From a virus (Duplodnaviria; Heunggongvirae; Uroviricota; Caudoviricetes): a stretch of 34,652 nucleotides of DNA. Position 1 is the first letter of the stretch, and each line of letters begins with the position of its first letter. Made by a program: the position numbers and the translations under genes. This document shows positions 2,694-32,139 of this stretch, in pieces. Below the pieces are notes generated by a model. The model searched no databases. It was not told where the DNA came from and saw nothing but the letters and a program-made list of their open reading frames with translations. Where the stretch lies: IMG/VR virus record IMGVR_UViG_3300045597_000172. One strand, 5' to 3'.

Positions 2694-2730
2694 CAAAAAA
2701 AATAGAATTACGCCAAAACGCAATTCTATT
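2694..2730 (-). terminator. Intrinsic terminator after the muramidase gene
   Basis: Stem AATAGAATT.CG / CG.AATTCTATT followed by a T run on the minus strand, just downstream of the stop at 2758. Confidence 0.7.
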
Positions 2731-2757
2731 GGTAATAAAAGACTTATAAACAATTCA

Positions 2758-5166
2758 TTATTTCACGCGCAAAACTTCTCCAACCGTTATCAAATTAGCA
2801 TTACGAATTCCATTCAATGATTGTAACTTAGCAGTTGTCGTTCCATAACGATAAGCAATTACCGACAAACTGTCACCACTACGAACCGTATAATAAGTCT
2901 TTGACGAATTTGATGATGTCGTATTTGGTGAAGTAGTAGACGTCGAACCCGAAATTACCAGTTTCTGTCCCACACTGATCAGGTTAGCATTCTTGATATT
3001 ATTCGTTGATTGCAACTTAGCAGTTGTTGTCCCATACTTAGCGGCAATTCCAGACAAAGTATCCCCACTTTTTACAGTATAAGTAACTGTGTTGGATGAA
3101 GTATTTGATTTTGTAGTTGAACTACTCCCAGAATTATTAGTCGTATTTGACGATGTATTAGTCTTAGCGGTAGTCGAACCTGAAACCGTCGTTGTTTTAG
3201 TACCGACTTTAAGAACTTGTCCAACACTAATCAAATTAGCGTTCTTAATTCCATTCCATGACTGCAATTGAGAAACTGTCGTACCGTAATTCTGAGCGAT
3301 TGTCGATAAATTATCCCCACTCTTAACCGTGTATGTCACGTTTGAAGTCGTAGTTGTTGGTGCAGTAGAAACAGTTGTCGTCGTTGTCTTAGTACCAACT
3401 TTAAGAACCTGTCCAACATTGATCAAGTTAGCATTACGAATACCATTCCACGATTGCAATTGCGAAACAGTCGTACCATAACGTTGTGCAATTGTTGAGA
3501 GATTATCACCGCTCTTAACCGTGTAAGTTACATTTGTAGTTGTAGTAACCGTTGTCGTAGTCGCAGTTTTATTCCCCGTATTACTTGTAGTCGTATTGGC
3601 AGTTGTGTTACCAGAACCAGTTGTTGTGGTAGTTGTAGTAGTCGAACCAGTCGTGTTTGTTGTCGTACCTGTATCTGCACTAACTAATGTATTTGTACCC
3701 GCGCTATCTTCTAAGAATCCAGAATAATCAATCGAAACATCCAAATTACCTGAATAGTATCCAGCTGGTAACTTAGCCGTTGATGCATCTTGCCAAGCAC
3801 CATACGATGTATTTCGTAAACTAGATGACGATGGTGAATACAAATATTGTGCGATCCAAGTTTTAGAAGATCCAACCGTAGCTGAAACCGCATCACGCTC
3901 AGTATAATAAAGACCCGTATATACGCCATGATTTGTATATCCTGCATTAGTCAAGACTTTCCAAAAATCATTTAAGTAAGTACCCTCATCTGAAACTTTC
4001 GTTGCATCAGCTTCCATATCAGCAATGATTAAAGTTTTTGTATTAACCCGGCTTGCTTTCAGAACACTTGCAAAATAAGTTCCCTCAGCAGTAGCCGTAG
4101 TCGCATTACCAAATTGAGCAAAATGATAAATATCAACATTCAAGCCGGCCGCATTTGCATACTTAACTTCCTGTAAGAAATATGGATTTGTATATGATGT
4201 ACCTTCAGTAGCCTTAACGATAATCGTTTTAACACCCAACGCCTTTAACTTATTAAAGTCATTTTGCGTCATTTCACCTTGATAAGAAGAAACATCTACT
4301 GCATCAACACGAGGACGACTCGTATCACCAATCGTCCAAGAATCAATCGATGGTGTTGCCAATAACGCTTGATAAGTTACAACATTCGGAACTACTGTCG
4401 CAACGGTACTCTTAGCACTAACTACAACATCTGTTGAAGTTGCACTACTTGTATTAGTAGACGTTGCCGCTACCGAACTGTTAGCCGTACTTGATGTATT
4501 TTCACTAGCTGCAACTGAACTAGCAACTGATGAACTTGCCGTACTTGCACTAGTAGAAGTCGTAGCACTCGCTGTACTTGAAACAGCCGTAGATCCTTGA
4601 CTAGACGCCACCGAACTATTAACAACACTAACGGCACTCGAAACTTTTGCAGTTGAAGAAACATCACTAGCTACATTCGAACTAGCTACATTCGAAGTTG
4701 TTTCAGAACTAGCCTTAGCTGCACTAGACGTTGCCGTAGAAGCATTCGTTACCGCACTGCTACTAGCAGTAGCACTTGATGAAACAGCACTTGAACTGCT
4801 CGAACTAGCACTATCGTTCGTAGAACTAACTGCACTAGCCGAATCCTGCTTAGTTGTCGTAGCATCACTACTCGTCGAAGTTGCAGCCGTACTTACCGCA
4901 CTCGAACTCGCACTAGCAGAACTTGCTTTTGACGAAGCACTACTTGAACTAGCACTCTCTGCTGAGCTACTAGAGCTAGAATTTGAACTTGAAGAACTTG
5001 ATGCACTAGAAGAAACTACACTTGACAAAGTCGAATCGGCTTTAACAGTATCAGCATGTACATTCATTACTGAATTAGTACCTAAAATTGCAGTTGCAAA
5101 CAATAATGATGCTAGAACCCCCACTGGTTTTGAAACCAAATTACTATTAGATTTACTAGAATTCAT
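2758..5166 (-). CDS. GH25 muramidase with four LysM domains (cell wall hydrolase, VirB1-like role likely)
   Basis: Signal peptide ending VHA-DT and a long Ser-rich linker. GH25 motifs DVSSYQG, IVKATEG, YHFA, IADME. Four YTV(K/R)SGDxLSxIAxxYGTT...N.I.NANLI.VG..L LysM repeats. Confidence 0.95.
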
Positions 5167-12793: not shown

Positions 12794-14629
12794 TTAACGA
12801 CTCGACCCTGACCAACGTCCAACTTCAATTTCAGCACTACCCTCTTTATCATTTGGCAAATCAATCGCCATTTGACCCTTAACACGCACACCAAGATCTT
12901 TTAATGACGGCCATTTGATAATGACTTCACTTATTTTAGAAACTAAATGTTCATCAATCCGTCGCCGGATTTCACGTCCACCACCATTAGTAGTTTCATT
13001 TGAACCTACATGTTCTTTAACAATGAAACGTTTAACATCTTGATCAATGTGCAATGTCACACCATGCTTTTGATAAACCAATTTTGATAAATCATGAAAC
13101 TGTGCATCACAAATCTTATTACGAGTCGATTCACCAATCGGTGCAAACGGAACAATCTGATCAAAACGTCCTAGTAATTCAGACGGAAATTGCGCTTGCT
13201 TAGATCGCAAAGCACGAGTAATCAATTTCATATAAGCTCGTAACATTTTATGTTGACGTTCACGTTCTTCAGCATCGGTACGATTAACATCTTGTACATG
13301 TCCATACATTGACTGCAAATCTTCATACACATTCGCCCCGGCATTAGTCGTAAAGATAATGTACGTATCCTTAAAACTAATTTCACGACCATGTTCATCA
13401 GTTAACCGCGCATCATCCAAAACTTGCAGCATCAACTTAGAACAAACCGATGCAGCCTTATCAATTTCATCTAACAAAATAATTGAACTCGGACGTTCCC
13501 ACACCGCCTCAGTCAAAGAGTCTTTCAACAACGTAACCGAACGTGGTTCCGAAAATTCACTCATATCAAAACGAATCATGTTAGATTCAGAACCATATAA
13601 GACTTGCGACATCGTTTTGGCCAAAGCTGTTTTACCAACACCAGTTGAACCAGTAAACAAAAAAGAACCACGCGGACGAGTACGATCATTCAAATCGGCA
13701 ACCGAAACATATAACCGTTCTGCCATTGCCTGTACCGCCAATGTTTGATCAAACACCTTAGCATTTAACTGTTCTTCAACATTATCAACATCAACTTGAT
13801 AATCAATATCCGTACCAACTGATGCCTTAATCATTTTTGCTAACAGCTTTTCATTCAACGGATCGTTAAATGTCCGATGCCAACCACCCATTGCATCCAA
13901 TAAACGTAACGATTTACGTGGCTGATGCTGACTAGGCAACGCCCGATCAGTAACTTCCACAATCCGACGCAACAAATGATCATCGACGTATTCACCCGGA
14001 AAACCAACTGCCATATAATTTTTAAGAGCTTTTAAAGTATCATCAAATGACAATTCCGGTAAAGAAATTCGTTCCAAACGTTCAGTTAAAGCTTCGTTAG
14101 GCCTAACATACTTATTGTATTCTTCGTAAGTTGTTGCCACAATAATCCGCAAACCACGCGCACCTGAATTTGCTAACACAGGCTTAATTGCTTCCATTGC
14201 GGCAGGACTAATTTCCATAATTAAATGAAATTCATCCATGAATAATACCAATTCCTTATTATGTTTCTTTTGATATTCAACAACTTCATCAACTAACTTT
14301 GTCAACCGACTACCCATTTGTAAAGTACCATCAGCACCATTATCTGAACTTGTCATCAAAGACAAACGCACTTCGTAATAATCACGGTTCGTATCACGTT
14401 CCGCCACACCATACGCCACCGTAGTCTTACCAGTTCCGGCTTCACCGACCAAGGCAACGTTTGAAATTTCAATTCGATTGAGTGTGGCCAAAACCAGATT
14501 GACAATATCTTCACGACCAACCATTTTACGTTTTCCGGGATTAACAACCGGTTGCAAATATTTATTCATCATGGGAAATTCAGACGTGGGCGTACTGGAT
14601 TGACTTACAGATTTATTTTTATCTACCAT
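12794..14629 (-). CDS. ClpB/ClpC-type double AAA+ ATPase lacking N-terminal Clp repeats
   Basis: NBD1: VGRE, LVGEAGTGKT, LFMDEFH, ATTYEEY, ALTERL. NBD2: FTGSTGVGKT, RFDMSEF, LLDEIDKA, LQVLDDARLTD, FTTN, ELLGRFD, GGREIRR. Confidence 0.93.
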   Translation of the reverse strand: MVDKNKSVSQSSTPTSEFPMMNKYLQPVVNPGKRKMVGREDIVNLVLATLNRIEISNVALVGEAGTGKTTVAYGVAERDTNRDYYEVRLSLMTSSDNGADGTLQMGSRLTKLVDEVVEYQKKHNKELVLFMDEFHLIMEISPAAMEAIKPVLANSGARGLRIIVATTYEEYNKYVRPNEALTERLERISLPELSFDDTLKALKNYMAVGFPGEYVDDHLLRRIVEVTDRALPSQHQPRKSLRLLDAMGGWHRTFNDPLNEKLLAKMIKASVGTDIDYQVDVDNVEEQLNAKVFDQTLAVQAMAERLYVSVADLNDRTRPRGSFLFTGSTGVGKTALAKTMSQVLYGSESNMIRFDMSEFSEPRSVTLLKDSLTEAVWERPSSIILLDEIDKAASVCSKLMLQVLDDARLTDEHGREISFKDTYIIFTTNAGANVYEDLQSMYGHVQDVNRTDAEERERQHKMLRAYMKLITRALRSKQAQFPSELLGRFDQIVPFAPIGESTRNKICDAQFHDLSKLVYQKHGVTLHIDQDVKRFIVKEHVGSNETTNGGGREIRRRIDEHLVSKISEVIIKWPSLKDLGVRVKGQMAIDLPNDKEGSAEIEVGRWSGSSR

Positions 14630-16591: not shown

Positions 16592-18604
16592 TTAACGTTC
16601 CATTCCACTTAACGTTTTCAAATGTCGTTCAACCAAGGTTTCTTGCTGGCGTTCATTTAAAACGTAACCATCACGTTCAATAGCGGGGTCAGGACGCGAA
16701 GTAACAGGCGTATCATCGGGTGTTTGCAACAACTTAAACTGCTTGTTCAAATCCTTTTGCGCATACTGTAACCACGCAGGATCAACCTGTCCCGTCTGCT
16801 TAAAATAATCGTGAGCCGACAATAACTTTTCAGCTCGCTGCGAAATACGTTTCCGCAACGCCAAATTAACCTCAAAATTCATAGAACCCGCATCCAGAAT
16901 CTCGTGAGCATCAACAGAAATCAAATCAGGATCATCACGCATTAATTTACGATCATAAATGGAATTCGTTTCAGGCGGAACTGGTAAAATACCATCATCC
17001 GCAGTCTTAAACTTCAAATCTTTAGTGCCTAATCCGCCCCACGAAGTTGCGTCCATTTCATAATCTTCAAGTTCTTGCAAATAATCAGCTAACCAAATTC
17101 TTTGCTGTGGACTCAAGCCATCCGGTTTAGGGTGCTGGTTACGGGTCAAGTTGGTGGCAATTAACTCACCTTCTTGGTCCGACACCGTCTTTTTAACAGC
17201 ATGGACAGTATGACTATCTAACGGATAATGTGGATCCGCTTGTGCTTTTCGTAATTCTTTATAATCCGGACTTTGCGTAACTGGTCCATCATATTGTTTA
17301 GCTAAGCCTTGCATAATATCCGGACGGGCTAAAAGACGTTGCACATAATGATCTCTTAATCCGGGAGCACCCAGTTTTGGCAATAACTCTTTACGATGCT
17401 GCAATAATACCTGACGACGATTATCAAGTTGCACTTGACGTGCTCGATAAATCGCATCAACACGCGGACGCTGATAACCCCGATATTTTTCAACAATCTG
17501 CATTTGATGTTGATACTCATAAGCCATTGCCTCTTTAACCGGTTTTGATTCCGTTACCGCTTGATTAACCGCATCGACTTGATTATAATGTTTCAACTCT
17601 TTACGAATTAACGTTGCACGTTTCATTGCTCTAATCTGACGCCGACTTCGTCTTTGTCCTTGACTTAACGTATGACTTCTAGTATCACGCCGGCCAACGT
17701 CACGCCAATCCTGCTGTATTTTTTCTTTCAAATTATCACGCTGACGTTCAGACAAAGTTCGCTGATCAAACATTTGCAAATTCATCACATATTCATCCAG
17801 TGACTGCCGATCCAAACGTAACGCACTTTGATATAATTCATGTTCCAACAATTTGCGCTTGAACTTTGCATTTTGCTGGGTGGTTTGTGCCACCGTTTTT
17901 AACATCTTAGTATTATTCAAATGCGGTCCATTTTGTAATAAATGCATTTCAATCCCGTCAATAACTGATTTTTTCAACTGCTGATTCAAAAAACCACGGT
18001 CATCCTTAACTTTCGGATCACGATCCCATAAACAAACGTGAGCATGAACCTGTTCGGTATCGATTTGAATCGCACCTACAATTTGAGGATTATGCATCGT
18101 CGTCTGATTAAGCATTGATTTCATACCATCTTGAATAGCTTCTCGTAAACGTTGCTGATCTAAATTTCCATGTAAATCTCCACGTAATACTGGCTCTTTG
18201 ACACTGTTATTCAAAACACCATGGTCTTTTAAATAACTAGTTCGAAATGAAATTACCATTTTACGAACCGTTCCGCCACGGTCATACGCACCTTGACAAT
18301 CGTCTGCTAATTTATCCTGCTCTTGACGTGATAAACTTGCATTTTCTAAATCAAAACCAATTCCAGCATAATGTAATCGATGATTCAAAATATTAACCGC
18401 GTCCTGATCTTCAGGCGAACGCAACTTTGAAAGTAACTCTAAATAATCAGCTTGCTGGTCATTCGATGTAACCAAAGGCTCTACTGCATAATCACGCAAA
18501 ATATAACCTTTGATAAATGCTTTTGTAAATTTTTTGGCTTTACCGGCCGATGTTGAACTCTTGTTAGTAAATTCGTTTCTAACAACGATGTCTGAACCAT
18601 CCAC
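16592..18604 (-). CDS. Conjugative relaxase, MobL/MobP2-like
   Basis: GTG start with GAGGTG RBS. N-terminal IVVRNEF, candidate catalytic Tyr in GYILRDYAVEP, KMVISF..YL..HG, and HUH motif GAIQIDTEQVHAHV, followed by a helical C-terminus. Confidence 0.85.
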   Translation of the reverse strand: MDGSDIVVRNEFTNKSSTSAGKAKKFTKAFIKGYILRDYAVEPLVTSNDQQADYLELLSKLRSPEDQDAVNILNHRLHYAGIGFDLENASLSRQEQDKLADDCQGAYDRGGTVRKMVISFRTSYLKDHGVLNNSVKEPVLRGDLHGNLDQQRLREAIQDGMKSMLNQTTMHNPQIVGAIQIDTEQVHAHVCLWDRDPKVKDDRGFLNQQLKKSVIDGIEMHLLQNGPHLNNTKMLKTVAQTTQQNAKFKRKLLEHELYQSALRLDRQSLDEYVMNLQMFDQRTLSERQRDNLKEKIQQDWRDVGRRDTRSHTLSQGQRRSRRQIRAMKRATLIRKELKHYNQVDAVNQAVTESKPVKEAMAYEYQHQMQIVEKYRGYQRPRVDAIYRARQVQLDNRRQVLLQHRKELLPKLGAPGLRDHYVQRLLARPDIMQGLAKQYDGPVTQSPDYKELRKAQADPHYPLDSHTVHAVKKTVSDQEGELIATNLTRNQHPKPDGLSPQQRIWLADYLQELEDYEMDATSWGGLGTKDLKFKTADDGILPVPPETNSIYDRKLMRDDPDLISVDAHEILDAGSMNFEVNLALRKRISQRAEKLLSAHDYFKQTGQVDPAWLQYAQKDLNKQFKLLQTPDDTPVTSRPDPAIERDGYVLNERQQETLVERHLKTLSGMER

Positions 18605-19661: not shown

Positions 19662-19800
19662 GTCAATTACTCGTCACTAAAGTAACAAGCTTGTAACTCA
19701 CACTAACTTAGTAGTCCAAACGTCTTAACGACTCCTACTTACGTGGTTACATCATCGGATGATTGACAGCACCCGTTTAAGCTAAAGAATATATCCTTAA
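19662..19800 (-). ncRNA. TnpB omega RNA (reRNA) scaffold; the guide would be the flank starting at 19661 (UAUUUUGACGGUAAAACAGC)
   Basis: Non-coding stretch between the tnpB stop and the right end, with an upstream GTCAA complementary to the terminal TTGAC and the subterminal hairpin. This matches established TnpB locus architecture. The 5' end is uncertain and may overlap tnpB. Confidence 0.7.
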
Positions 19801-20996
19801 CTTGTTAATTTTGTGAAACTAGTTGGTTTCTTAGTAACCCAATTAGTACCTAATGATTGAATGTTCATTGCTCCAATTCGATCATCATTACTACGATAGC
19901 CACAATGTTTACAACAATATTCATGCGTAACATGATTACGAGCATCTTTATCAATCATGCCACACTTCGGACAGCGCTGACTGGTATAATGCGCATCTAC
20001 TTTAAGCACAATGGAACCTTTCAGTTCAGCTTTATAAAGTAAGAATTGTTCCAATTGATAAAACGCCCAGCTAACTTGTTCGTAACGTCTAGTCTTAACT
20101 ACTTTTTCAGTTGCAAAACGAACATTCGTTAAATCTTCAATCGTAAATATCGTACCAGTACTGTATCTATCAACGAGTGTCTTAGAAATCTGATGATTAA
20201 TGTCACTCATCCAGCGGTTTTCTCGTTGACCAATTTTCTTTAATCTACGTTTTGCCGATTTAGTACCTTTAGCTTGCAATTGTTGACGTAACTTTTTAAA
20301 TTTACGTCTTTTACTAATAATCGCTGAACCCTTAACAAAAGAAGTTTTGCCTTTTTCATCATAACAAGTAGCCAGAAATCTTAAACCTCGATCAATTCCA
20401 ACTACATGTTTAAGATTATCCTTACTAAATTCAGAAGTCTTTACAGTACAAGCCACATGCAAAAAATAATGTCCGCACAGTTTAACTAATTTAGCAGTAC
20501 CAAGCGTGCCTGTTTTAAGGTAGTTTTCAAAACCTTTAGCCGTATAATTAATTTTTTGTCTAGTAGCTATCGTATTAATCGATAGTTGATCTTTAACGAA
20601 TGACCAATCTCTAACAGAGACCAAATCACATTGCGGACGATTAAACGAAACCGGTTTTTGTAACCAAGTTAAATCACGTTTAATCCTATAATTCGTATTT
20701 GAATCCGTGTCATGATATTTAAAAGGCTTCTTGCTTAATTGGGTATCAAGTGTTTTATATCTAGCTAAAACAGTCTTAAAAACCGATTGCGTCATTTGTG
20801 ACTTTAAACCAAACCTTTCTCTAATCAGATGATAAAGATGTGATTGTAATCCAGATTGTCTAGGTTTAAAGTTGTTTTCAAAATAATAATTAGACACCAA
20901 ATTGCAAGCAAGCTGATATTGTTTCATTGTAGTTTCAAGTACGTTAGTTTGCTCAGTAGTTGGATATAAACGTAATTTTAAGGTAACAGTTGCCAT
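19797..20996 (-). CDS. tnpB: RNA-guided endonuclease TnpB
   Basis: N-terminal KLRLYPTTEQ. RuvC-I VVGIDRG, RuvC-II FTIEDL, zinc finger TSQRCPKCG...CKHCG, RuvC-III NDDRIGAMNI. All three acidic catalytic positions are present. Confidence 0.96.
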   Translation of the reverse strand: MATVTLKLRLYPTTEQTNVLETTMKQYQLACNLVSNYYFENNFKPRQSGLQSHLYHLIRERFGLKSQMTQSVFKTVLARYKTLDTQLSKKPFKYHDTDSNTNYRIKRDLTWLQKPVSFNRPQCDLVSVRDWSFVKDQLSINTIATRQKINYTAKGFENYLKTGTLGTAKLVKLCGHYFLHVACTVKTSEFSKDNLKHVVGIDRGLRFLATCYDEKGKTSFVKGSAIISKRRKFKKLRQQLQAKGTKSAKRRLKKIGQRENRWMSDINHQISKTLVDRYSTGTIFTIEDLTNVRFATEKVVKTRRYEQVSWAFYQLEQFLLYKAELKGSIVLKVDAHYTSQRCPKCGMIDKDARNHVTHEYCCKHCGYRSNDDRIGAMNIQSLGTNWVTKKPTSFTKLTS

Positions 20997-24008: not shown

Positions 24009-26015
24009 CTATTTATCGCCAAACAGTTTTTCCAAAGCGTCATCAATTTCGGATTTCTTACGATCACTTAACGGTTCTGAAACAAAATTGTCATCGTCAT
24101 CATCGCTTTCTTGATGATCTGCTAAGTAAGCACGTTCCGCTTGGCTTAACGCAATCGATAGATACGAAGATGCATCTCGATATGCGTCTGAATGAACGTA
24201 CTGTGATAACAACGTATCATCAACCGTTTGATCGGTTAAGAAAATCAATTTCTCAGCACGAGTCAACGCGGTATAAAGCAGTTGACGAGTTAGAAAACGA
24301 ACGGATGTTCCAGATTTCAAATAATAAATCACAACTGGAATTGTTGAACCTTGCGCTTTATGAACCGTCAAAGCATACCCTAATGATAAATTATCGATTG
24401 TTGCATATTGAGAATCACCGTCTGTATCAGGCAAGTTATTATCATCAACATAAAAATCAAACTCTAAATTTCGACTACTAGATGCAACATGTTTAAATTC
24501 GACACGGATACGCGGATGAACACCCTGATCAAAAACTTTTTTAACCCGACCAACAAAGCCATTAAAAATATTAGCCGTTTTATCAGAATCAGCTAAGACA
24601 GCATGATACATGTTATGAGTTACTAAAACCTTATCACCCTCAAAGAATTGCAATTCATGCGCCCGCAAAACAGGTTTACCTTTAGAAAACATCCGTTGCA
24701 ACTGTTCGTTAAACCAATCAACATCCTCATTTTTTGGTGTGATTAAATTAACATCATCCATTCCAAATTTATTGGCAGCCGCTTGATAAGCGAATAATCC
24801 AAACCGGCGATTTTCAACTTGGCGATATTTTAACGTATCGTCATCACTGAAATCAGTTGGTTCTTCAACCGCCCGTAAAGACGTTGCGTGATCTAATAAG
24901 TGACCCTCACCTTGACGAAAGACATGTGTCAACGTATGCGTGTAAATCGATTGCGTTACCGAAGACTTTAGGAAATCCGGAAATGCAGTTAACATCCCGA
25001 CACCCTCAACCGCTGGCAACTGCGCCGGATCACCAATCATGACAACATGCGTTTTTGGACTTAATAAGTACAATAACTTTAATAAGTCTGCTTCTGAAAC
25101 CATTGAAATTTCATCAATAATTAAATATGGTACTCGTAAATGAACGCCGGCATAAACTAAACCGGCAATCGTACGTGATGGCATGTGCGTGATCTGCGTC
25201 AAGTTAAAACATGCTTTACCCGCAATCGCGCATAACTGAGCATCTTGTGCCGTTAATTGCAAATAATTCGTCAATGCTTGAACTAACGTTGACTTACCAG
25301 TACCTGCATAACCAGTCAACAAGCTAACCCGTGAGCTAATCAAATTACGCACAACATCTTGCTGTTCAGCTGATAATGGAACGGCCGATGCCTTAACCGC
25401 TTCTTTTAATTTAGCTTCATCAACTGTAGCAGGTTCAATTTCAGAACGTTCAATTAACATATTAGCAAGTCGATTAGTATTTTCATAATACTCACGATCA
25501 ATAATCCCACCCGGAACATGTTCGTAAACATCACTTTCGCGAATCAACTTATCTAATTCACTAACAAGTTTCAGATTTTCAATTTCACTATTCATATCGG
25601 GTGTGTTTGATAAAACAACTTTTTCAGCTTCATCAAGCACCATCGATTCGTTCATAATTGCCTGTCCATTACTAATTCCAGATGCCAAAACCGCCTTGAC
25701 CATTGCGTCAACCCGACGTTTTTCAGCATAACCAACATGCCAAGGATGATCATCCGGCAAATCCGTAACAACGGAATCGACTAATAAAACGGTAATTCTG
25801 GGAATCTCTGATAATAAATATGGATTTTCTTCTAAAACATTACGCATTCTAAACAATCCACTTACCAGATCAGCTTTTGAATCAAGACCTCGTAAATCAC
25901 GACGATAATAGTTTGCGATTCGCTGCAAATTAGCATCTGTAAAATATTGCCTAAGTTGTTGATAGATAGCCGATTTGCGTAACAGTGGCTTCGAGTTAAC
26001 TCGTTTTGCAATCAT
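24009..26015 (-). CDS. RecD2-like SF1B 5'-3' DNA helicase
   Basis: LSAEQQ, TGYAGTGKST, IIDEISMV, IGDPAQLPAV, LTHVFRQ, IFNGFVG, LGYALTVHKAQGS, LLYTALTRA. Confidence 0.93.
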   Translation of the reverse strand: MIAKRVNSKPLLRKSAIYQQLRQYFTDANLQRIANYYRRDLRGLDSKADLVSGLFRMRNVLEENPYLLSEIPRITVLLVDSVVTDLPDDHPWHVGYAEKRRVDAMVKAVLASGISNGQAIMNESMVLDEAEKVVLSNTPDMNSEIENLKLVSELDKLIRESDVYEHVPGGIIDREYYENTNRLANMLIERSEIEPATVDEAKLKEAVKASAVPLSAEQQDVVRNLISSRVSLLTGYAGTGKSTLVQALTNYLQLTAQDAQLCAIAGKACFNLTQITHMPSRTIAGLVYAGVHLRVPYLIIDEISMVSEADLLKLLYLLSPKTHVVMIGDPAQLPAVEGVGMLTAFPDFLKSSVTQSIYTHTLTHVFRQGEGHLLDHATSLRAVEEPTDFSDDDTLKYRQVENRRFGLFAYQAAANKFGMDDVNLITPKNEDVDWFNEQLQRMFSKGKPVLRAHELQFFEGDKVLVTHNMYHAVLADSDKTANIFNGFVGRVKKVFDQGVHPRIRVEFKHVASSSRNLEFDFYVDDNNLPDTDGDSQYATIDNLSLGYALTVHKAQGSTIPVVIYYLKSGTSVRFLTRQLLYTALTRAEKLIFLTDQTVDDTLLSQYVHSDAYRDASSYLSIALSQAERAYLADHQESDDDDDNFVSEPLSDRKKSEIDDALEKLFGDK

Positions 26016-26037
26016 TTAATTCACCTCACTTTCAATG

Positions 26038-26418
26038 TTAATCTTTTTCGAGAATATTTTTTAAAGCATCTGTCAGCACCTTTGAAAAATTCAAGTGCGC
26101 TTCACGACCAGCTTCAACTAAATAACGCGGAATCGTTACGGAACGTTTAACCGAAAGCTTTTCTCGCTTGGCCAACAGATGTGAAACGTCAACCGCGATC
26201 AAACTTAAAATCTCGCCGTCATGCAATTCAGGAATTTCAATATTTTCCGGCGTGCTATTTTCAACAATATATTTTCCGATTGCACTTTCTGCCAGTAATA
26301 AACCATCCGGTACTGATTCCCCTTTTACAGTTTCCGAAATTGCCGGTACAGTCACCGTACAACCACCATCCGCCAGATCATGAATAATAACTGGCAATGC
26401 TATTTTTTTACTTCCCAC
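26038..26418 (-). CDS. HicB-family antitoxin-like DNA-binding protein (no hicA)
   Basis: PVIIH...VTVPAI....GESV.DGL..AESAIG (HicB N-domain) and VKRSVTIPRYLVEAGREAHLNFSKVLTDAL (RHH-like C-terminus of Firmicute HicB). Start moved to GTG 26418, downstream of the promoter. Confidence 0.82.
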   Translation of the reverse strand: MGSKKIALPVIIHDLADGGCTVTVPAISETVKGESVPDGLLLAESAIGKYIVENSTPENIEIPELHDGEILSLIAVDVSHLLAKREKLSVKRSVTIPRYLVEAGREAHLNFSKVLTDALKNILEKD

Positions 26419-26476
26419 TGATAACACGTCCTTTTTAATAATCTCTAATGGGCTACGCCCTGTTTCTACACTATTT

Positions 26477-26505
26477 ATTATACGCATTATTGTGCGCATA
26501 ATCAA
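26477..26505 (-). promoter_or_regulatory. SigA promoter with overlapping inverted-repeat operator
   Basis: TTGATT-17 bp-TATAAT on the minus strand, overlapped by TTATGCGCA-N6-TGCGTATAA (8/9 inverted repeat). Confidence 0.75.
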
Positions 26506-27816: not shown

Positions 27817-28044
27817 TTAAAATGGTGCCGGTCTCGATGATAATGAATTAAATAATCCTTGTGAATTCATATTATCATACATATGACTACCAATCACTTG
27901 ACCATTGATTACAAATGTTGTGCCTTGTAAATTAGCGTTTCGAATATCATCAAAATACCAAAAACGGCCACTTATCGAATAGCCACCAATAATTTTGCCA
28001 CTTGGACCAGTTCCAGCTTGAATAATTGTCTCGATTATGTTCAC
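27817..28044 (-). CDS. Small hypothetical protein, paralog of 31912-32139
   Basis: GTG start after GAAAGAAG. Gap-free similarity to the ORF at 31912. Confidence 0.8.
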   Translation of the reverse strand: MNIIETIIQAGTGPSGKIIGGYSISGRFWYFDDIRNANLQGTTFVINGQVIGSHMYDNMNSQGLFNSLSSRPAPF

Positions 28045-28173: not shown

Positions 28174-29301
28174 TTACTTACCAGACTTCGTCCGATTATC
28201 ATCGGCGCACAACATCTGACAATTTTCGGCAACCGTTTTGCCGCCCTTAGACCACGGCACAATATGATCGGCCTGCATTTCTTTAAACTCAAAATGGTTG
28301 TCACACATAGGACAAATACCATTCTGACGCTCATATGCTTCACGCGCCTGTGCTAGACTGAAACCGCGAATCGATAGCTTACGTTCATTACCGGTGAGTA
28401 CATAATCATAAATACCAGCTTTTTTCGTTACATCATCGTCAATCATCAAAGCCTTAATCCGTGCTTCAATTTCGTCAGGATCGATAACATCGTTCTTATG
28501 GGCGTCATATAACGGACCCCACGGCACCTGTTTCATTTCTTTTGACCGCTTGACTGTAAACGTGTCTTCAATCCAGTGCATCATCTGATTCCAATAACGC
28601 TTCAACGCGTTAGCGTTGTCGTCATGTTGATGTTGAGCCATATATTGAGCCGGATCGCCGCCGTTCATCCAATCAAGAGCCTTTTCAAACAGCTCTTGAC
28701 GAATCGGATTGCCTTTAACATAGTCTTTTGACACTAACACCCCGGCGGCATTTGGCTTTGAGAAAAACGCTTTTGCATCTGTCACAAACGGTCCAGAATA
28801 AACGGCGTTACGCAATTCTTGATCCGTGAGCTTTTCACCGACGGTATTGATCACATTAAACCAATCCAGCTTTTCAGCTTCGGTACCTTCACAGAAATAC
28901 ACTTGCAACTTGTAATTAAGCAGCGCAGTTCGTTCATCGTCAGTCAAATTGTGAAAGAACTTCGGACTGTCACCATCGTGAAGCTCAATTGCAAACCCAT
29001 TATCGACATACTGACAAATCGACACCGTACGTTGTTGACCATCAATCAATTCATAAGTGTCGTCCGAATCATCGTCCGGCGTTCCGTTATTGTTAACCGA
29101 CCAATACATCGTATTCAGTGGAAACCCGCCAAATACTGATCGAATCACCGCATCACGCTGCTTGTCATTGTAAACAAACTCACGTTGATACGGCGGCCGA
29201 ATATTAAGCCGAGAATCGTAACCGGTAACACCGTTTACGGCATTATCTTGATAATTTTGTGTGAGATCTCGAATCGAAATCTCGTGTAAGTTAATTTTCA
29301 T
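28174..29301 (-). CDS. DUF262 (ParB/Srx-like, GmrSD N-terminal type) plus HNH endonuclease
   Basis: PPYQREFVY, ELIDGQQRT and FNVINTVGEKLT..ELRN (DUF262). C-terminal CPMC...ADHIVPWSKGGKT..ENCQMLCADDN..KS (HNH). Confidence 0.92.
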   Translation of the reverse strand: MKINLHEISIRDLTQNYQDNAVNGVTGYDSRLNIRPPYQREFVYNDKQRDAVIRSVFGGFPLNTMYWSVNNNGTPDDDSDDTYELIDGQQRTVSICQYVDNGFAIELHDGDSPKFFHNLTDDERTALLNYKLQVYFCEGTEAEKLDWFNVINTVGEKLTDQELRNAVYSGPFVTDAKAFFSKPNAAGVLVSKDYVKGNPIRQELFEKALDWMNGGDPAQYMAQHQHDDNANALKRYWNQMMHWIEDTFTVKRSKEMKQVPWGPLYDAHKNDVIDPDEIEARIKALMIDDDVTKKAGIYDYVLTGNERKLSIRGFSLAQAREAYERQNGICPMCDNHFEFKEMQADHIVPWSKGGKTVAENCQMLCADDNRTKSGK

Positions 29302-29357
29302 TTATCGTCACGAGAACCTTTCCATTTATTCCAATCATCACCTGAACACAACCCAAT

Positions 29358-30377
29358 CTAATCCACATGACACTTGCGAATAAACAACCGTTTATATACT
29401 TTTTTACCATCAATCAGAGCTTGTGCTATACCACTATCTTCATGCCACAAGCCTTTCGAAACGCCCTTACCTTCACTTTCAGTAGCACCAATAATTTCAA
29501 ACTGATCCGGATTGTACTTATCAATAAACGTGATCGGCACGCCCATCACCCCATCGTAATCTTCGGGAATATTAACAACTTTCGAAACCTCAATGGCGTC
29601 ATAGTTATCATAGTGCGGGTAGTCCGCCTCGTGTCCCTTATACCGCCGGAACAGATCCAGTGTTTCGTGACGCTTGTGGGTGTCTATGTTGGTAAACCAA
29701 TCGATATTACGCATTTTAAACTGTTGGTGCCCATCAGCTCCCGTACGAACACTGGCACTATCGTTGAACTCATACCCATCTGGTACCGTGAACCACTTGT
29801 CGCCACCATTATTATATCCAAGCCAAAGATCGTTGGATTGAATCAATGAAAAAATCTCCTTGTACGTAATAGAATTAGCGCTACCCAACACAATAAATTG
29901 TTTGCCATACTCAAACAGTTGTGCCACATACTCACGAAACAAGCTAAACGGTGGATTCGTCACAACAATGTCCGACTCCTTCAAAAATTCAACACAGGCA
30001 TCCGACCGAAAATCGCCGTTGCCTGTTAACGGTTCACGTAATGCCTTCAACGCATCATAATCGATATCGGCATTGTTTACTAACACCGTATCGATGTTTT
30101 CCGGCGTAACCGTTAACGAGTACGAATCACTACTTGGCGAACTCTCACTAACATAATGTGTCGTAATCAACTTCTTGAGCTTCAAGAAATTAAAATTCAA
30201 CACGAAATAAACAAAGAAATTACTAGACTCCGGATCGTCACAATTACAATAAATTGTCTTGCCGGCAAACTGATCACGGTAATGCTTCAATTCTTTTTCA
30301 ATATCAGTCAACTGAGTATAAAACTCATCACGCTTAGCCTTTTTTGCTTCTTGTAACTTTTTACTTGTATTTACCAT
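29358..30377 (-). CDS. Adenine-specific DNA methyltransferase, M.EcoRI family (copy 2)
   Basis: DEFYTQ, IYCNCDDP, GDFRS, DIVVTNPPFSLFREY, WFTN, YDNYDAIEV, GVMGVPITF.DKYNP.QFEI. Start moved to ATG 30377 after GAAAGGTG. Confidence 0.93.
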   Translation of the reverse strand: MVNTSKKLQEAKKAKRDEFYTQLTDIEKELKHYRDQFAGKTIYCNCDDPESSNFFVYFVLNFNFLKLKKLITTHYVSESSPSSDSYSLTVTPENIDTVLVNNADIDYDALKALREPLTGNGDFRSDACVEFLKESDIVVTNPPFSLFREYVAQLFEYGKQFIVLGSANSITYKEIFSLIQSNDLWLGYNNGGDKWFTVPDGYEFNDSASVRTGADGHQQFKMRNIDWFTNIDTHKRHETLDLFRRYKGHEADYPHYDNYDAIEVSKVVNIPEDYDGVMGVPITFIDKYNPDQFEIIGATESEGKGVSKGLWHEDSGIAQALIDGKKVYKRLFIRKCHVD

Positions 30378-30500
30378 CTGATTCACCTTTCTACCGCATT
30401 CCTGCAACGGTGCCCACCCATAACATTAACAATTAATATGACGTTTTCAATACGAAGAACATTATTCTCGATCATCGTCATCACCTGAACACAACTCAAT

Positions 30501-31490
30501 CTAATTCACATGACACTTGCGAATTAAAATGCGAGCATATTTACGTTTACCGTCTACATACATGCGACCCTTTTCAACATCGGACATAAACGCATCTAAC
30601 CCCACAATTTCAAACTGATCCGGATTGTACTTATCGATAAACGTAATCGGCACACCCATTACACCATCGTAATCTTCGGGAATGTTAACGACTTTACTGA
30701 CTTCGATTGCGTCATAATTATCATAGTGCGGATAATCCGATTCATGACCCTTATAACGACGGAACAGATCCAAGGTTTCGTGACGTTTGTAGGTGTCCGT
30801 GTTGGTAAACCAACGAACACCCTTAACACGAACAAACTTATGGCCATCGCCATCAACACGCGTTCCAGTAGCCGTCAACGGATAATCATCGGGCACCTGA
30901 AACTCACGATCACCACTGTGAATACTTGGGCCAAGCCAAATTTCATTCGCCATAATGTGACTAAACACATCTTTATATGTAACCGCATTGATATTACCAA
31001 TAATAATAAATTGCTTTCCGTATTCAAACAGTTGTGCTACATACTCATGGAACAAACTAAACGGTGGATTCGTCACGACAATGTCGGACTCCTTTAAAAA
31101 CACCACACAGGCATCAGACCGAAAATCCCCGTTGCCTGTTAACGGTTCACGTAATGTCTTCAATGCATTATAATCGATATCAGCATTGTTTACTAACACT
31201 GTATCAATATTTTCCGGCGTAACCGTCAACGAATACGAATCACTACTTGGTGAACTCTCACTAACATAATGTGTCGTAATCAACTTCTTGAGCTTCAAAA
31301 AATTAAAATTCAACACGAAATAAACAAAGAAATTACTAGACTCCGGATCATCGCAATTACAATAAATTGTCTTGCCGGCAAACTGATCACGATAGTGCGT
31401 CAATTCCTTTTCAATATCAGTCAACTGAGTATAAAACTCATCACGCTTAGCCTTTTTGGCTTCCTGTAACTTTTTACTTGTATTTGCCAT
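30501..31490 (-). CDS. Adenine-specific DNA methyltransferase, M.EcoRI family (copy 1)
   Basis: Same motifs as copy 2 including NPPF, with GAAAGGTG RBS. Confidence 0.93.
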   Translation of the reverse strand: MANTSKKLQEAKKAKRDEFYTQLTDIEKELTHYRDQFAGKTIYCNCDDPESSNFFVYFVLNFNFLKLKKLITTHYVSESSPSSDSYSLTVTPENIDTVLVNNADIDYNALKTLREPLTGNGDFRSDACVVFLKESDIVVTNPPFSLFHEYVAQLFEYGKQFIIIGNINAVTYKDVFSHIMANEIWLGPSIHSGDREFQVPDDYPLTATGTRVDGDGHKFVRVKGVRWFTNTDTYKRHETLDLFRRYKGHESDYPHYDNYDAIEVSKVVNIPEDYDGVMGVPITFIDKYNPDQFEIVGLDAFMSDVEKGRMYVDGKRKYARILIRKCHVN

Positions 31491-31642
31491 CTAATTCACC
31501 TTTCTACCACTGCACCTGCGACTATCACCACTACAATCGGCGATGTTCCAAAGCCAGTCACTGTACCCCAACCACATCGCATATCTCACGCAGAATCACT
31601 GTTGCGCCACGATAACCACAAAAAATTTAAGATCGTTATTTT

Positions 31643-31798
31643 TTATTTTTTTGTAATAATGATTCGAGACATTGATTCATCTAATTCGATTTTGACCTGA
31701 TCACCATTTCTAAGATGCAACCAATCACAAATTTTCGACGGTAATCGAATACCTAATGAGTTACCCCAAGCTGTGACTGATCTAACTTCTTTCTTCAA
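31643..31798 (-). CDS. AbrB/MazE/SpoVT-family DNA-binding protein (51 aa)
   Basis: VTAWGNSLGIRLPSKICDWLHLRNGDQVKI. TTG start at 31798 after GGAGGTG. Confidence 0.88.
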   Translation of the reverse strand: MKKEVRSVTAWGNSLGIRLPSKICDWLHLRNGDQVKIELDESMSRIIITKK

Positions 31799-31863
31799 TC
31801 TAACACCTCCCATAATAATATCTATATTATATATCATTTGATAAAGTAATACTATCATAAAAT

Positions 31864-31891
31864 AAAAAAAAACGTTACGAATTATCGTAAC
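31864..31891 (-). terminator. Intrinsic terminator
   Basis: CGTTACGA-TAAT-TCGTAACG followed by a T run on the minus strand, after the 31912 stop. Confidence 0.8.
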
Positions 31892-31911
31892 GAATATTCC
31901 TAAAAATCATC

Positions 31912-32139
31912 TTATAAAAAACACTTAGGCGCAAGTCTACCAGTCAAGTTACTTAAAAAACCATTGACATCAACAAAATCATACTGTTGCGAATCGACGA
32001 AATCCTCACCAATTAACAACTCAAACTTATTCATATTAAGGTTACGCAAACGACTCAACTTCCAAAATGAACCATCTACCATATAAACACCAATAACTTT
32101 ACCAGCTTTATTCAAAGCTCGTTGTAAAACAACATACAT
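31912..32139 (-). CDS. Small hypothetical protein, paralog of 27817-28044
   Basis: AAAGGA RBS, own terminator, and similarity to the 27817 ORF. Confidence 0.8.
   Translation of the reverse strand: MYVVLQRALNKAGKVIGVYMVDGSFWKLSRLRNLNMNKFELLIGEDFVDSQQYDFVDVNGFLSNLTGRLAPKCFL

Follow-up and report, generated by a model that had tools for sequence, protein, structure and literature searches.

A conjugative element carries two mosaic EcoRI-family methylases beside a single DUF262-HNH nuclease: a candidate methylase-guided restriction cassette

The window analysed here, a stretch of 34,652 nucleotides filed as IMG/VR virus record IMGVR_UViG_3300045597_000172 (Caudoviricetes), is a conjugative element with a GC content of 38%, in which four co-oriented minus-strand genes encode a small AbrB-like protein, two methylases of the EcoRI family (M1 and M2) and one nuclease (R). 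These genes are best explained as a four-gene operon comprising a regulator, two methylases and a nuclease, and the two-methylase arrangement is, as judged from sequence comparison, a derived form of a very common restriction-modification cassette of one methylase and one nuclease. With moderate confidence, we favour a reading in which each methylase would act as a specificity-plus-protection subunit for the shared nuclease, yielding methylase-guided restriction with two interchangeable methylases. Each EcoRI-family methylase would read DNA through two swappable variable regions (VR1 and VR2) and methylate adenine within its own motif, its conserved N-terminal half would dock onto the ParB-like nucleoside triphosphatase (NTPase) domain of the single HNH nuclease, and the nuclease would act solely at unmethylated sites of whichever methylase is bound. 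Two methylase alleles would thereby give one nuclease two specificities, each allele supplying its own protection. Somewhat more tentatively, we suggest that the cassette may constitute a distinct restriction-modification class, in which a monomeric gamma-type methylase reads DNA and docks on a specificity-less HNH nuclease, and in which arrays of methylases add specificities. New here are the recurrence of such arrays, four methylase alleles on one backbone, the covariation of the nuclease with the methylase N-terminal module, a predicted complex between the two proteins, and the age of the twins, both of which have been under selection.

The features of the cassette are as follows.

31643..31858, minus strand: AbrB/MazE-fold (SpoVT-AbrB) small gene, 71 aa; PF04014, E 1e-7
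30501..31490, minus strand: M1, EcoRI-family N6-adenine methyltransferase, allele VR1-a/VR2-a, 329 aa; PF13651
30813..31004, minus strand: VR1 of M1 (aa 163-226), a beta-hairpin region, with 36% identity to VR1 of M2
30525..30599, minus strand: VR2 of M1 (aa 298-322), a short allele of a block that is hypervariable family-wide
29358..30377, minus strand: M2, EcoRI-family N6-adenine methyltransferase, allele VR1-b/VR2-b, 339 aa; PF13651
29700..29891, minus strand: VR1 of M2, from alignment to M1
29382..29486, minus strand: VR2 of M2, 35 aa, from alignment to M1
28174..29301, minus strand: R, DUF262, helical middle and HNH nuclease, 375 aa; PF03235 and PF01844

Two old methylase alleles with a mosaic structure

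Alignment of M1 and M2 reveals a mosaic that is not due to chance. The first 162 residues differ at six positions and a 71-aa middle block (WFTN...FEIxG) at four, and between and after these blocks lie VR1, identical at 23 of 64 residues (36%), and VR2, which is barely alignable (8 of 25 identical); identity returns at the motif IRKCHV and continues for ~26 nt past each stop codon. At the DNA level, identity per 30-nt window is 87–100% in the constant blocks, compared with 33–60% in VR1 and 10–43% in VR2. The residue counts per block reproduce exactly those of a first-pass annotation made from the letters alone, which had also remarked that a single nuclease, here R, follows the twin methylases. 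The synonymous divergence (dS) between the two copies amounts to 0.40 for the N-terminal block and 1.09 for the middle block, with a ratio of nonsynonymous to synonymous divergence (dN/dS) of 0.04 in each. M1 and M2 are therefore not the product of a recent duplication, and both copies have been under purifying selection, which has held the constant blocks alike in two old alleles; both copies look functional.

Both proteins are clear members of the EcoRI methylase family, with scores against PF13651 (EcoRI_methylase) of 417 bits for M1 (E 6.6e-125) and 411 bits for M2 (E 4.8e-123; cut-off 26.4) in alignments that span positions 2-344 of the 345 in the profile, and full-length matches to the PADLOC model MTase_II (E 1e-118 to 1e-120; 1.6e-120 for M1). 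The motif NPPF stands at aa 141-144 in both, and all 50 columns invariant among 42 relatives are conserved in M1 and, by a four-sequence alignment, in M2 too. A search of the Protein Data Bank (PDB) by sequence gave no match for the methylase. An AlphaFold2 model of M1, with a mean predicted local distance difference test score (pLDDT) of 86, returned only generic Rossmann and gamma-type methyltransferase cores among solved folds (Foldseek and VIA), including TaqI (Z 9.0, root-mean-square deviation 3.4 over 164 aligned residues), HsdM and MmeI, pointing to a gamma-type N6-adenine methyltransferase core. The open reading frame of M2 spans 29358-30407, but translation almost certainly begins at the ATG at 30377, giving 339 aa, because its ribosome-binding site (GAAAGGTGA) and spacing match those of M1; the start region GAAAGGTGA-N6-ATG is common to both genes.

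M1 and M2 also form direct repeats with high-identity blocks of 213–486 nt (29358-31490). A crossover between the two would remove ~1.1 kb and fuse them into one chimeric methylase, such as VR1-a with VR2-b, and would thus offer a one-way route towards new combinations of VR alleles.

A DUF262-HNH nuclease behind the methylases

R comprises an N-terminal DUF262 domain (PF03235, GmrSD_N; E 3.7e-21), which is a ParB/Srx-like NTPase domain bearing the motif DGQQR at aa 87-91, and a C-terminal HNH domain (PF01844, E 1.1e-12; PF14279 HNH was also reported) at aa 330-373, with the pattern CxxC...CxxxC, D345-H346, N360 and N369. The DGQQR motif is invariant across the R family, and cleavage is probably gated by nucleoside triphosphate (NTP). 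The Pfam search showed only DUF262 and HNH, with no superfamily 2 (SF2) helicase, PD-(D/E)xK or DUF1524 domain. The AlphaFold2 model of R has a pLDDT of 88, and the nearest solved folds found by Foldseek were BrxU (the best, E 1.3e-3), ParB-CDP, SspE and the Gme HNH, all of them weak matches; a PDB search by sequence matched the HNH motif only (E 0.0025). Against the PADLOC model REase_II PDLC03418, R aligned over positions 1-372 of 372 (E 6.6e-125).

Methylase modules reassort around a constant nuclease

Relatives were collected as 80 genome loci found with the nuclease as seed and 80 metagenome loci for which M1 served as seed (160 in all); in these comparisons WIN is the window's own locus and L-numbers are the collected relative loci. 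Across 70 loci no hypervariable block was found in the nuclease, which has only two short indel loops. The methylase has three variable blocks family-wide, namely aa 76-120, VR1 (185-226) and VR2 (298-318), the last with a length of roughly 10–180 aa. The nuclease sequence does not follow the VRs: in 28 of the 42 locus pairs whose nucleases share at least 85% identity, VR2 fell below 35% identity, and in 20 of them VR1 fell below 45%. Nucleases 99% identical accompany VR2 blocks 15% identical in L013 and L014, and nucleases 96% identical accompany VR2 blocks 25% identical in L116 and L127; in L068 and L073, with nucleases 96% identical, VR1 is 27% and VR2 85% identical. The reverse is also seen, with VR2 alleles that share 70% identity or more beside nucleases that share as little as 51%. 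By these alignments, VR1 and VR2 reassort separately from one another and from the nuclease, as the first-pass annotation had anticipated in proposing that homologous loci be searched for VR alleles that change while the nuclease stays conserved (here R 96–99% identical beside unrelated VRs). VR1 and VR2 probably set DNA specificity, and the nuclease probably has none of its own.

The closest relatives of the window repeat this pattern on a single backbone. The metagenome scan seeded with M1 returned no relative above 60% identity, and the close relatives L002, L174 and L170 were obtained by exact sequence look-up only. L002 and L174 share the flanks of the window, with the AbrB-like gene upstream and a 75-aa gene downstream, and encode nucleases 96% (L002) and 98% (L174) identical to R with scattered differences, yet each carries a single methylase of a further allele, so that WIN, L002 and L174 together hold four methylase alleles (VR1/VR2 a/a, b/b, c/c and b/d). 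Since the flanks are homologous among these three loci, a single methylase is ancestral and two are derived. VR1 of M2 is nearly identical to VR1 of the single methylase of L174 and its VR2 is different. VR1 of M1 is ~81% identical in the Chloroflexota methylase P0149, a protein with 60% identity overall and only about half in its N-terminal part, and an M1-type allele of this kind, with the same VR2 class, is the sole methylase beside a nuclease in a Chloroflexota genome; the VR2 class of M1 recurs in the second methylase of Lacticaseibacillus paracasei L003 (76%).

These shared allele classes bear on the possibility that VR1 and VR2 are merely tolerant surface loops and that the whole family shares one motif. 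At a dS of 0.4–1.1, unconstrained drift could in principle bring VR1 to 36% identity; yet the VR alleles form conserved classes across very different backbones, as in the ~81% identity of VR1 in the Chloroflexota protein and the recurrence of VR2 alleles beside nucleases only 51% identical, and VR2 varies in length from ~10 to 180 aa, which together leave this explanation highly improbable.

In a separate comparison of WIN with L174 at the DNA level, the nuclease genes were 97% identical and the constant parts of the methylases only 87–90%, which indicates an older or more recombined history for the methylase.

Methylase arrays recur in independent lineages

Two methylases ahead of one nuclease were found in WIN, L003 (L. 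paracasei), L092, L100, L120, L134 and L144, and three in L112. The nucleases of these array loci are only 48–80% identical to each other, so arrays arose several times, in at least eight lineages. Within all eight loci the constant blocks are mostly 58–97% identical, VR1 19–64% and VR2 0–20%, and the paired methylases always differ in their VR alleles. In six of the eight, a methylase's own twin has the closest N-terminal module among 158 methylases; in L120 the twin N-terminal modules are nearest although the rest of the protein ranks 156 of 158. The frequency of arrays is low, at ~0–1 of the 80 nuclease-seeded loci and ~7 of the 80 methylase-seeded loci, the latter a metagenome sample that favours arrays.

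Two loci deserve further mention. In L112 (1620-5913) the middle of the three methylase genes is split by a frameshift (2715-3593 and 3520-3711), and L118 holds a partial extra methylase copy.

Two methylases with one nuclease is the classic layout of a system with an asymmetric site, and the constant difference in VRs between twins would suit a Type IIS-like arrangement in which R has a single asymmetric recognition site, one strand of which is methylated by M1 and the other by M2. The first-pass annotation had offered this as its alternative, and the collected loci weaken it. One full methylase with one full nuclease is the norm, occurring in 118 of 170 sequences (duplicate places counted); a nuclease 96–98% identical to R is paired with a single methylase of other alleles in L002 and L174; alleles related to each of the twins stand alone, the M1 type in the Chloroflexota genome and VR1 of M2 in L174; and L112 has three methylases for one nuclease. 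We therefore regard strand-by-strand methylation as improbable.

The nuclease covaries with the N-terminal module of the methylase and is predicted to bind the methylase

Nuclease identity correlates with the identity of methylase aa 1-75 (rho 0.48) and aa 76-120 (0.30), but not with that of VR1 (−0.11) or VR2 (0.15). Where nucleases are at least 85% identical, identity across methylase residues 76-120 is 88%, compared with 36% in the background. In paired mutual information with average-product correction over 125 pairs (effective number of sequences ~100), methylase aa 1-120 contributed to 94 of the top 100 inter-protein pairs, VR1 to one and VR2 to one. Linkage alone is a poor explanation of this covariation, because aa 1-120 are encoded at the end of the methylase gene that is distal to the nuclease gene.

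Modelling of a methylase with the nuclease, which had been suggested as a check, gave a positive outcome: the predicted complex of M1 and R scored 0.71 (runs of 0.71, 0.68 and 0.72), compared with 0.00 for the best of three controls. Of 80 solved complexes 58 score this high, as do 2 of 110 mismatched pairs, counts that hold only roughly here, as our own locus-row-paired alignments lie outside the calibration of the predictor. Contacts agreed by at least 80% between runs, the partner pLDDT was 83, and no similar solved complex was detectable by sequence. The predicted interface comprises residues 23-31, 56-64, 101-105, 234-245 and 268 of the methylase and 20-21, 46, 101-120, 179-190 and 238-242 of the nuclease, and M1 and M2 differ at only 2 of the 21 residues on the methylase side (T31K and Y234H). 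In the model, the methylase would sit on the DUF262 domain through blocks common to M1 and M2. The model thus supports binding between methylase and nuclease, and the complex stands as a predicted one.

Were the two proteins to act without a complex, R might be a relaxed or non-specific nuclease restrained by N6-methyladenine in any context, with the second methylase only adding marks. Such a mark-sensing nuclease would be independent of the VRs, as R is; according to published papers, DUF262 domains serve as sensors of modification and NTP in GmrSD, BrxU and SspE, and BrxU and SspE are among the nearest folds to R. However, the predicted interface clears its controls by a clean margin, the nuclease covaries with one specific part of the methylase, its N-terminal module, the N-terminal modules of twins match within loci, and in all assessable loci the nuclease pairs with one methylase family. 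On balance we consider mark-sensing without a complex unlikely.

A different role for the second gene is conceivable on a mobile element. One of the two methylases could be a functional orphan, a passport whose advance methylation would shield the conjugative element from related cassettes in recipient cells, the nuclease using the adjacent methylase or none. The cassette lies on an element with a MobL relaxase, a GH25-LysM hydrolase and a Clp-type ATPase, and single-methylase relatives of the same element exist. Set against this, methylase-methylase-nuclease arrays recur in at least seven other lineages, and both copies retain the predicted docking surface under a dN/dS of 0.04. A sequence scan of the cassette also found no terminator-like site between M1, M2 and R, and promoter-like matches there showed no excess over shuffled sequence. 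The passport role strikes us as quite doubtful.

Several points weigh against the favoured reading of a methylase-guided nuclease with two interchangeable methylases. VR1 and VR2 are putative DNA-reading parts by their position and variability, and they could not be placed on a solved DNA complex because the fold searches returned only generic gamma-type methyltransferase cores. The covariation between the N-terminal module and the nuclease could partly reflect the ends of recombination tracts, and in L100 and L134 the N-terminal modules of the twins are not each other's nearest. The alignments behind the complex score, as noted, are of our own pairing. Finally, PADLOC files R among orthodox Type II restriction endonucleases, in a set of REase_II models that we take to be derived from REBASE, and a characterised cutter of a fixed site may exist among them.

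Comparison with known restriction systems

An orthodox Type II pair such as EcoRI fits the catalogue entry, with a clear PF13651 methylase and full-length PADLOC matches to both MTase_II and REase_II, but not the covariation. In such a pair the recognition parts of the nuclease would change with those of the methylase; R has no variable block and does not covary with the VRs, staying constant while the putative recognition blocks of the methylase swap. The partner is moreover not a PD-(D/E)xK enzyme, and it is predicted to form an interface with the methylase. The first-pass annotation had taken a PD-(D/E)xK enzyme to be the normal partner of M.EcoRI, a view at odds with the searched loci and plasmid records, which repeatedly pair the PF13651 methylase with a DUF262-HNH nuclease.

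Under the favoured reading, the cassette would be functionally closest to the Mod and Res proteins of Type III systems (e.g. EcoP15I), and its methylase closer to Mod than to HsdS. Both have separate methylase and nuclease genes in one operon and a variable recognition region within the methylase, and, if the favoured reading holds, both would have an NTP-dependent nuclease without specificity of its own. Unlike R, which joins a ParB/Srx-like DUF262 NTPase to an HNH domain, Res joins an SF2 helicase to a PD-(D/E)xK nuclease, and membership of Type III fails because R has no helicase; in addition, the methylase here belongs to the EcoRI family and not to the beta-class Mod proteins, and its complex with the nuclease is only predicted.

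With GmrSD, BrxU and SspE, R shares an N-terminal DUF262 domain with DGQQR, a helical region and a His-Me finger nuclease. In place of DUF1524, R ends in a classical HNH domain (PF01844) that bears a Cys4 zinc site, R is shorter (375 compared with about 560–770 aa), and in the examined loci it is encoded directly after a cognate putative N6-adenine methylase and does not stand alone. It follows from the lack of DUF1524 and the presence of a cognate methylase that R falls outside the GmrSD family. The earlier description of DUF262 plus HNH as the architecture of GmrSD and SspE has to be corrected accordingly, as those two proteins carry DUF1524.

Type I systems in which several hsdS genes coexist or shuffle, and Type IIS systems with M1 and M2 methylases, resemble the favoured view of the cassette in having several specificity-bearing genes per nuclease, with conserved blocks flanking variable modules. 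In contrast to hsdS systems, the variable modules lie inside the catalytic methylase and there is no separate S subunit, and M1 and M2 are direct repeats, whose recombination would delete and not invert; in contrast to Type IIS systems, single-methylase forms are the norm. The first-pass annotation had viewed the VRs as target-recognition modules of interchangeable specificity subunits and had likened these to HsdS. The first part gains from the present comparisons, in which the VRs prove to be family-wide variable blocks that reassort independently of a nuclease with no variable block of its own, and in which the predicted interface lies on constant blocks; the likeness to HsdS is inexact, because the variable modules lie within the catalytic methylase, as they do in Type III Mod.

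A widespread and catalogued cassette

The pairing of this methylase with a DUF262-HNH nuclease is very widespread and already catalogued, and the two-methylase form is uncommon. More than 8000 relatives of R, counted as protein clusters, were among the matches listed, and by tblastn the methylase and nuclease genes are neighbours on plasmids of numerous phyla. In nearly all assessable loci among the 160, the gene immediately upstream of the nuclease encodes a PF13651 methylase, and in 81 of 116 loci the pair overlaps or is almost contiguous. Hosts include archaea and bacteria of the candidate phyla radiation (CPR). In three archaeal metagenome-assembled genomes (L042, L057 and L085) and many CPR loci, covering Woesearchaeota, Nitrososphaerota, Pacearchaeota and Saccharibacteria, the nucleases are 52–57% identical to R, no lower than in bacteria generally, which indicates wide horizontal spread. 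A full-text literature search found no paper on the mechanism of this methylase and DUF262-HNH pair, the papers on Menshen, GmrSD and C. jejuni dealing with other DUF262 proteins, and an Atlas search returned generic names only.

The cassette is present in hundreds of species of bacteria and archaea, on plasmids and in phages, and to annotation tools it is an ordinary Type II pair. Should the nuclease take its specificity from the methylase, a ParB-type NTP switch would be the coupling device of a restriction enzyme, and new specificities could arise without risk to the host, each methylase allele bringing its own protection. The cassette would then also provide a compact scaffold of two proteins that could be retargeted through an exchange of VR blocks. 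The array in the window provides a natural experiment of this kind, with one nuclease and two methylases, and single-methylase sisters in L002 and L174 that carry the third and fourth alleles.

The surrounding element

The AbrB-like gene is a probable transcriptional controller of the cassette, and may exert a control over methylase and nuclease expression like that of C proteins. An AbrB/MazE-fold gene invariably heads the cassette in this clade (window 31643-31858, minus strand; L002:1006-1200; L174:3192-3386), the copy in L002 being 77% identical and placed equivalently, ahead of a single methylase. A terminator-like hairpin lies just upstream of the gene in the window, at 31873-31892.

Elsewhere in the window, the conjugation region (1-24000) holds the following genes.

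16592-18604: MobL relaxase
12794-14629: Clp-type double AAA ATPase
2758-5166: GH25 hydrolase with four LysM domains
19797-20996: TnpB

The MobL relaxase has only distant relatives on plasmids, and megablast searches of PLSDB with the cassette and with 24 kb of the element gave zero matches. An identical M1 sequence has been recorded from two contigs, 107 kb and 237 kb long. Downstream of the cassette (24009-26505, minus strand) are a HicB-like gene without an obvious HicA and, starting 22 nt on, a RecD-like SF1 helicase, which also matches the PADLOC candidate-system models PDC-S68 and RecD_like. The idea that R is a phage packaging HNH protein beside terminase genes was rejected on this context, the downstream genes being the HicB-like gene and the RecD-like helicase and the element a conjugative one. 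Two paralogues of 75 aa bracket the cassette (27817-28044 and 31912-32139, both on the minus strand; 30% identical, E 2e-15), and the downstream one also follows the nuclease in the single-methylase relatives L002 (92% nucleotide identity) and L174.

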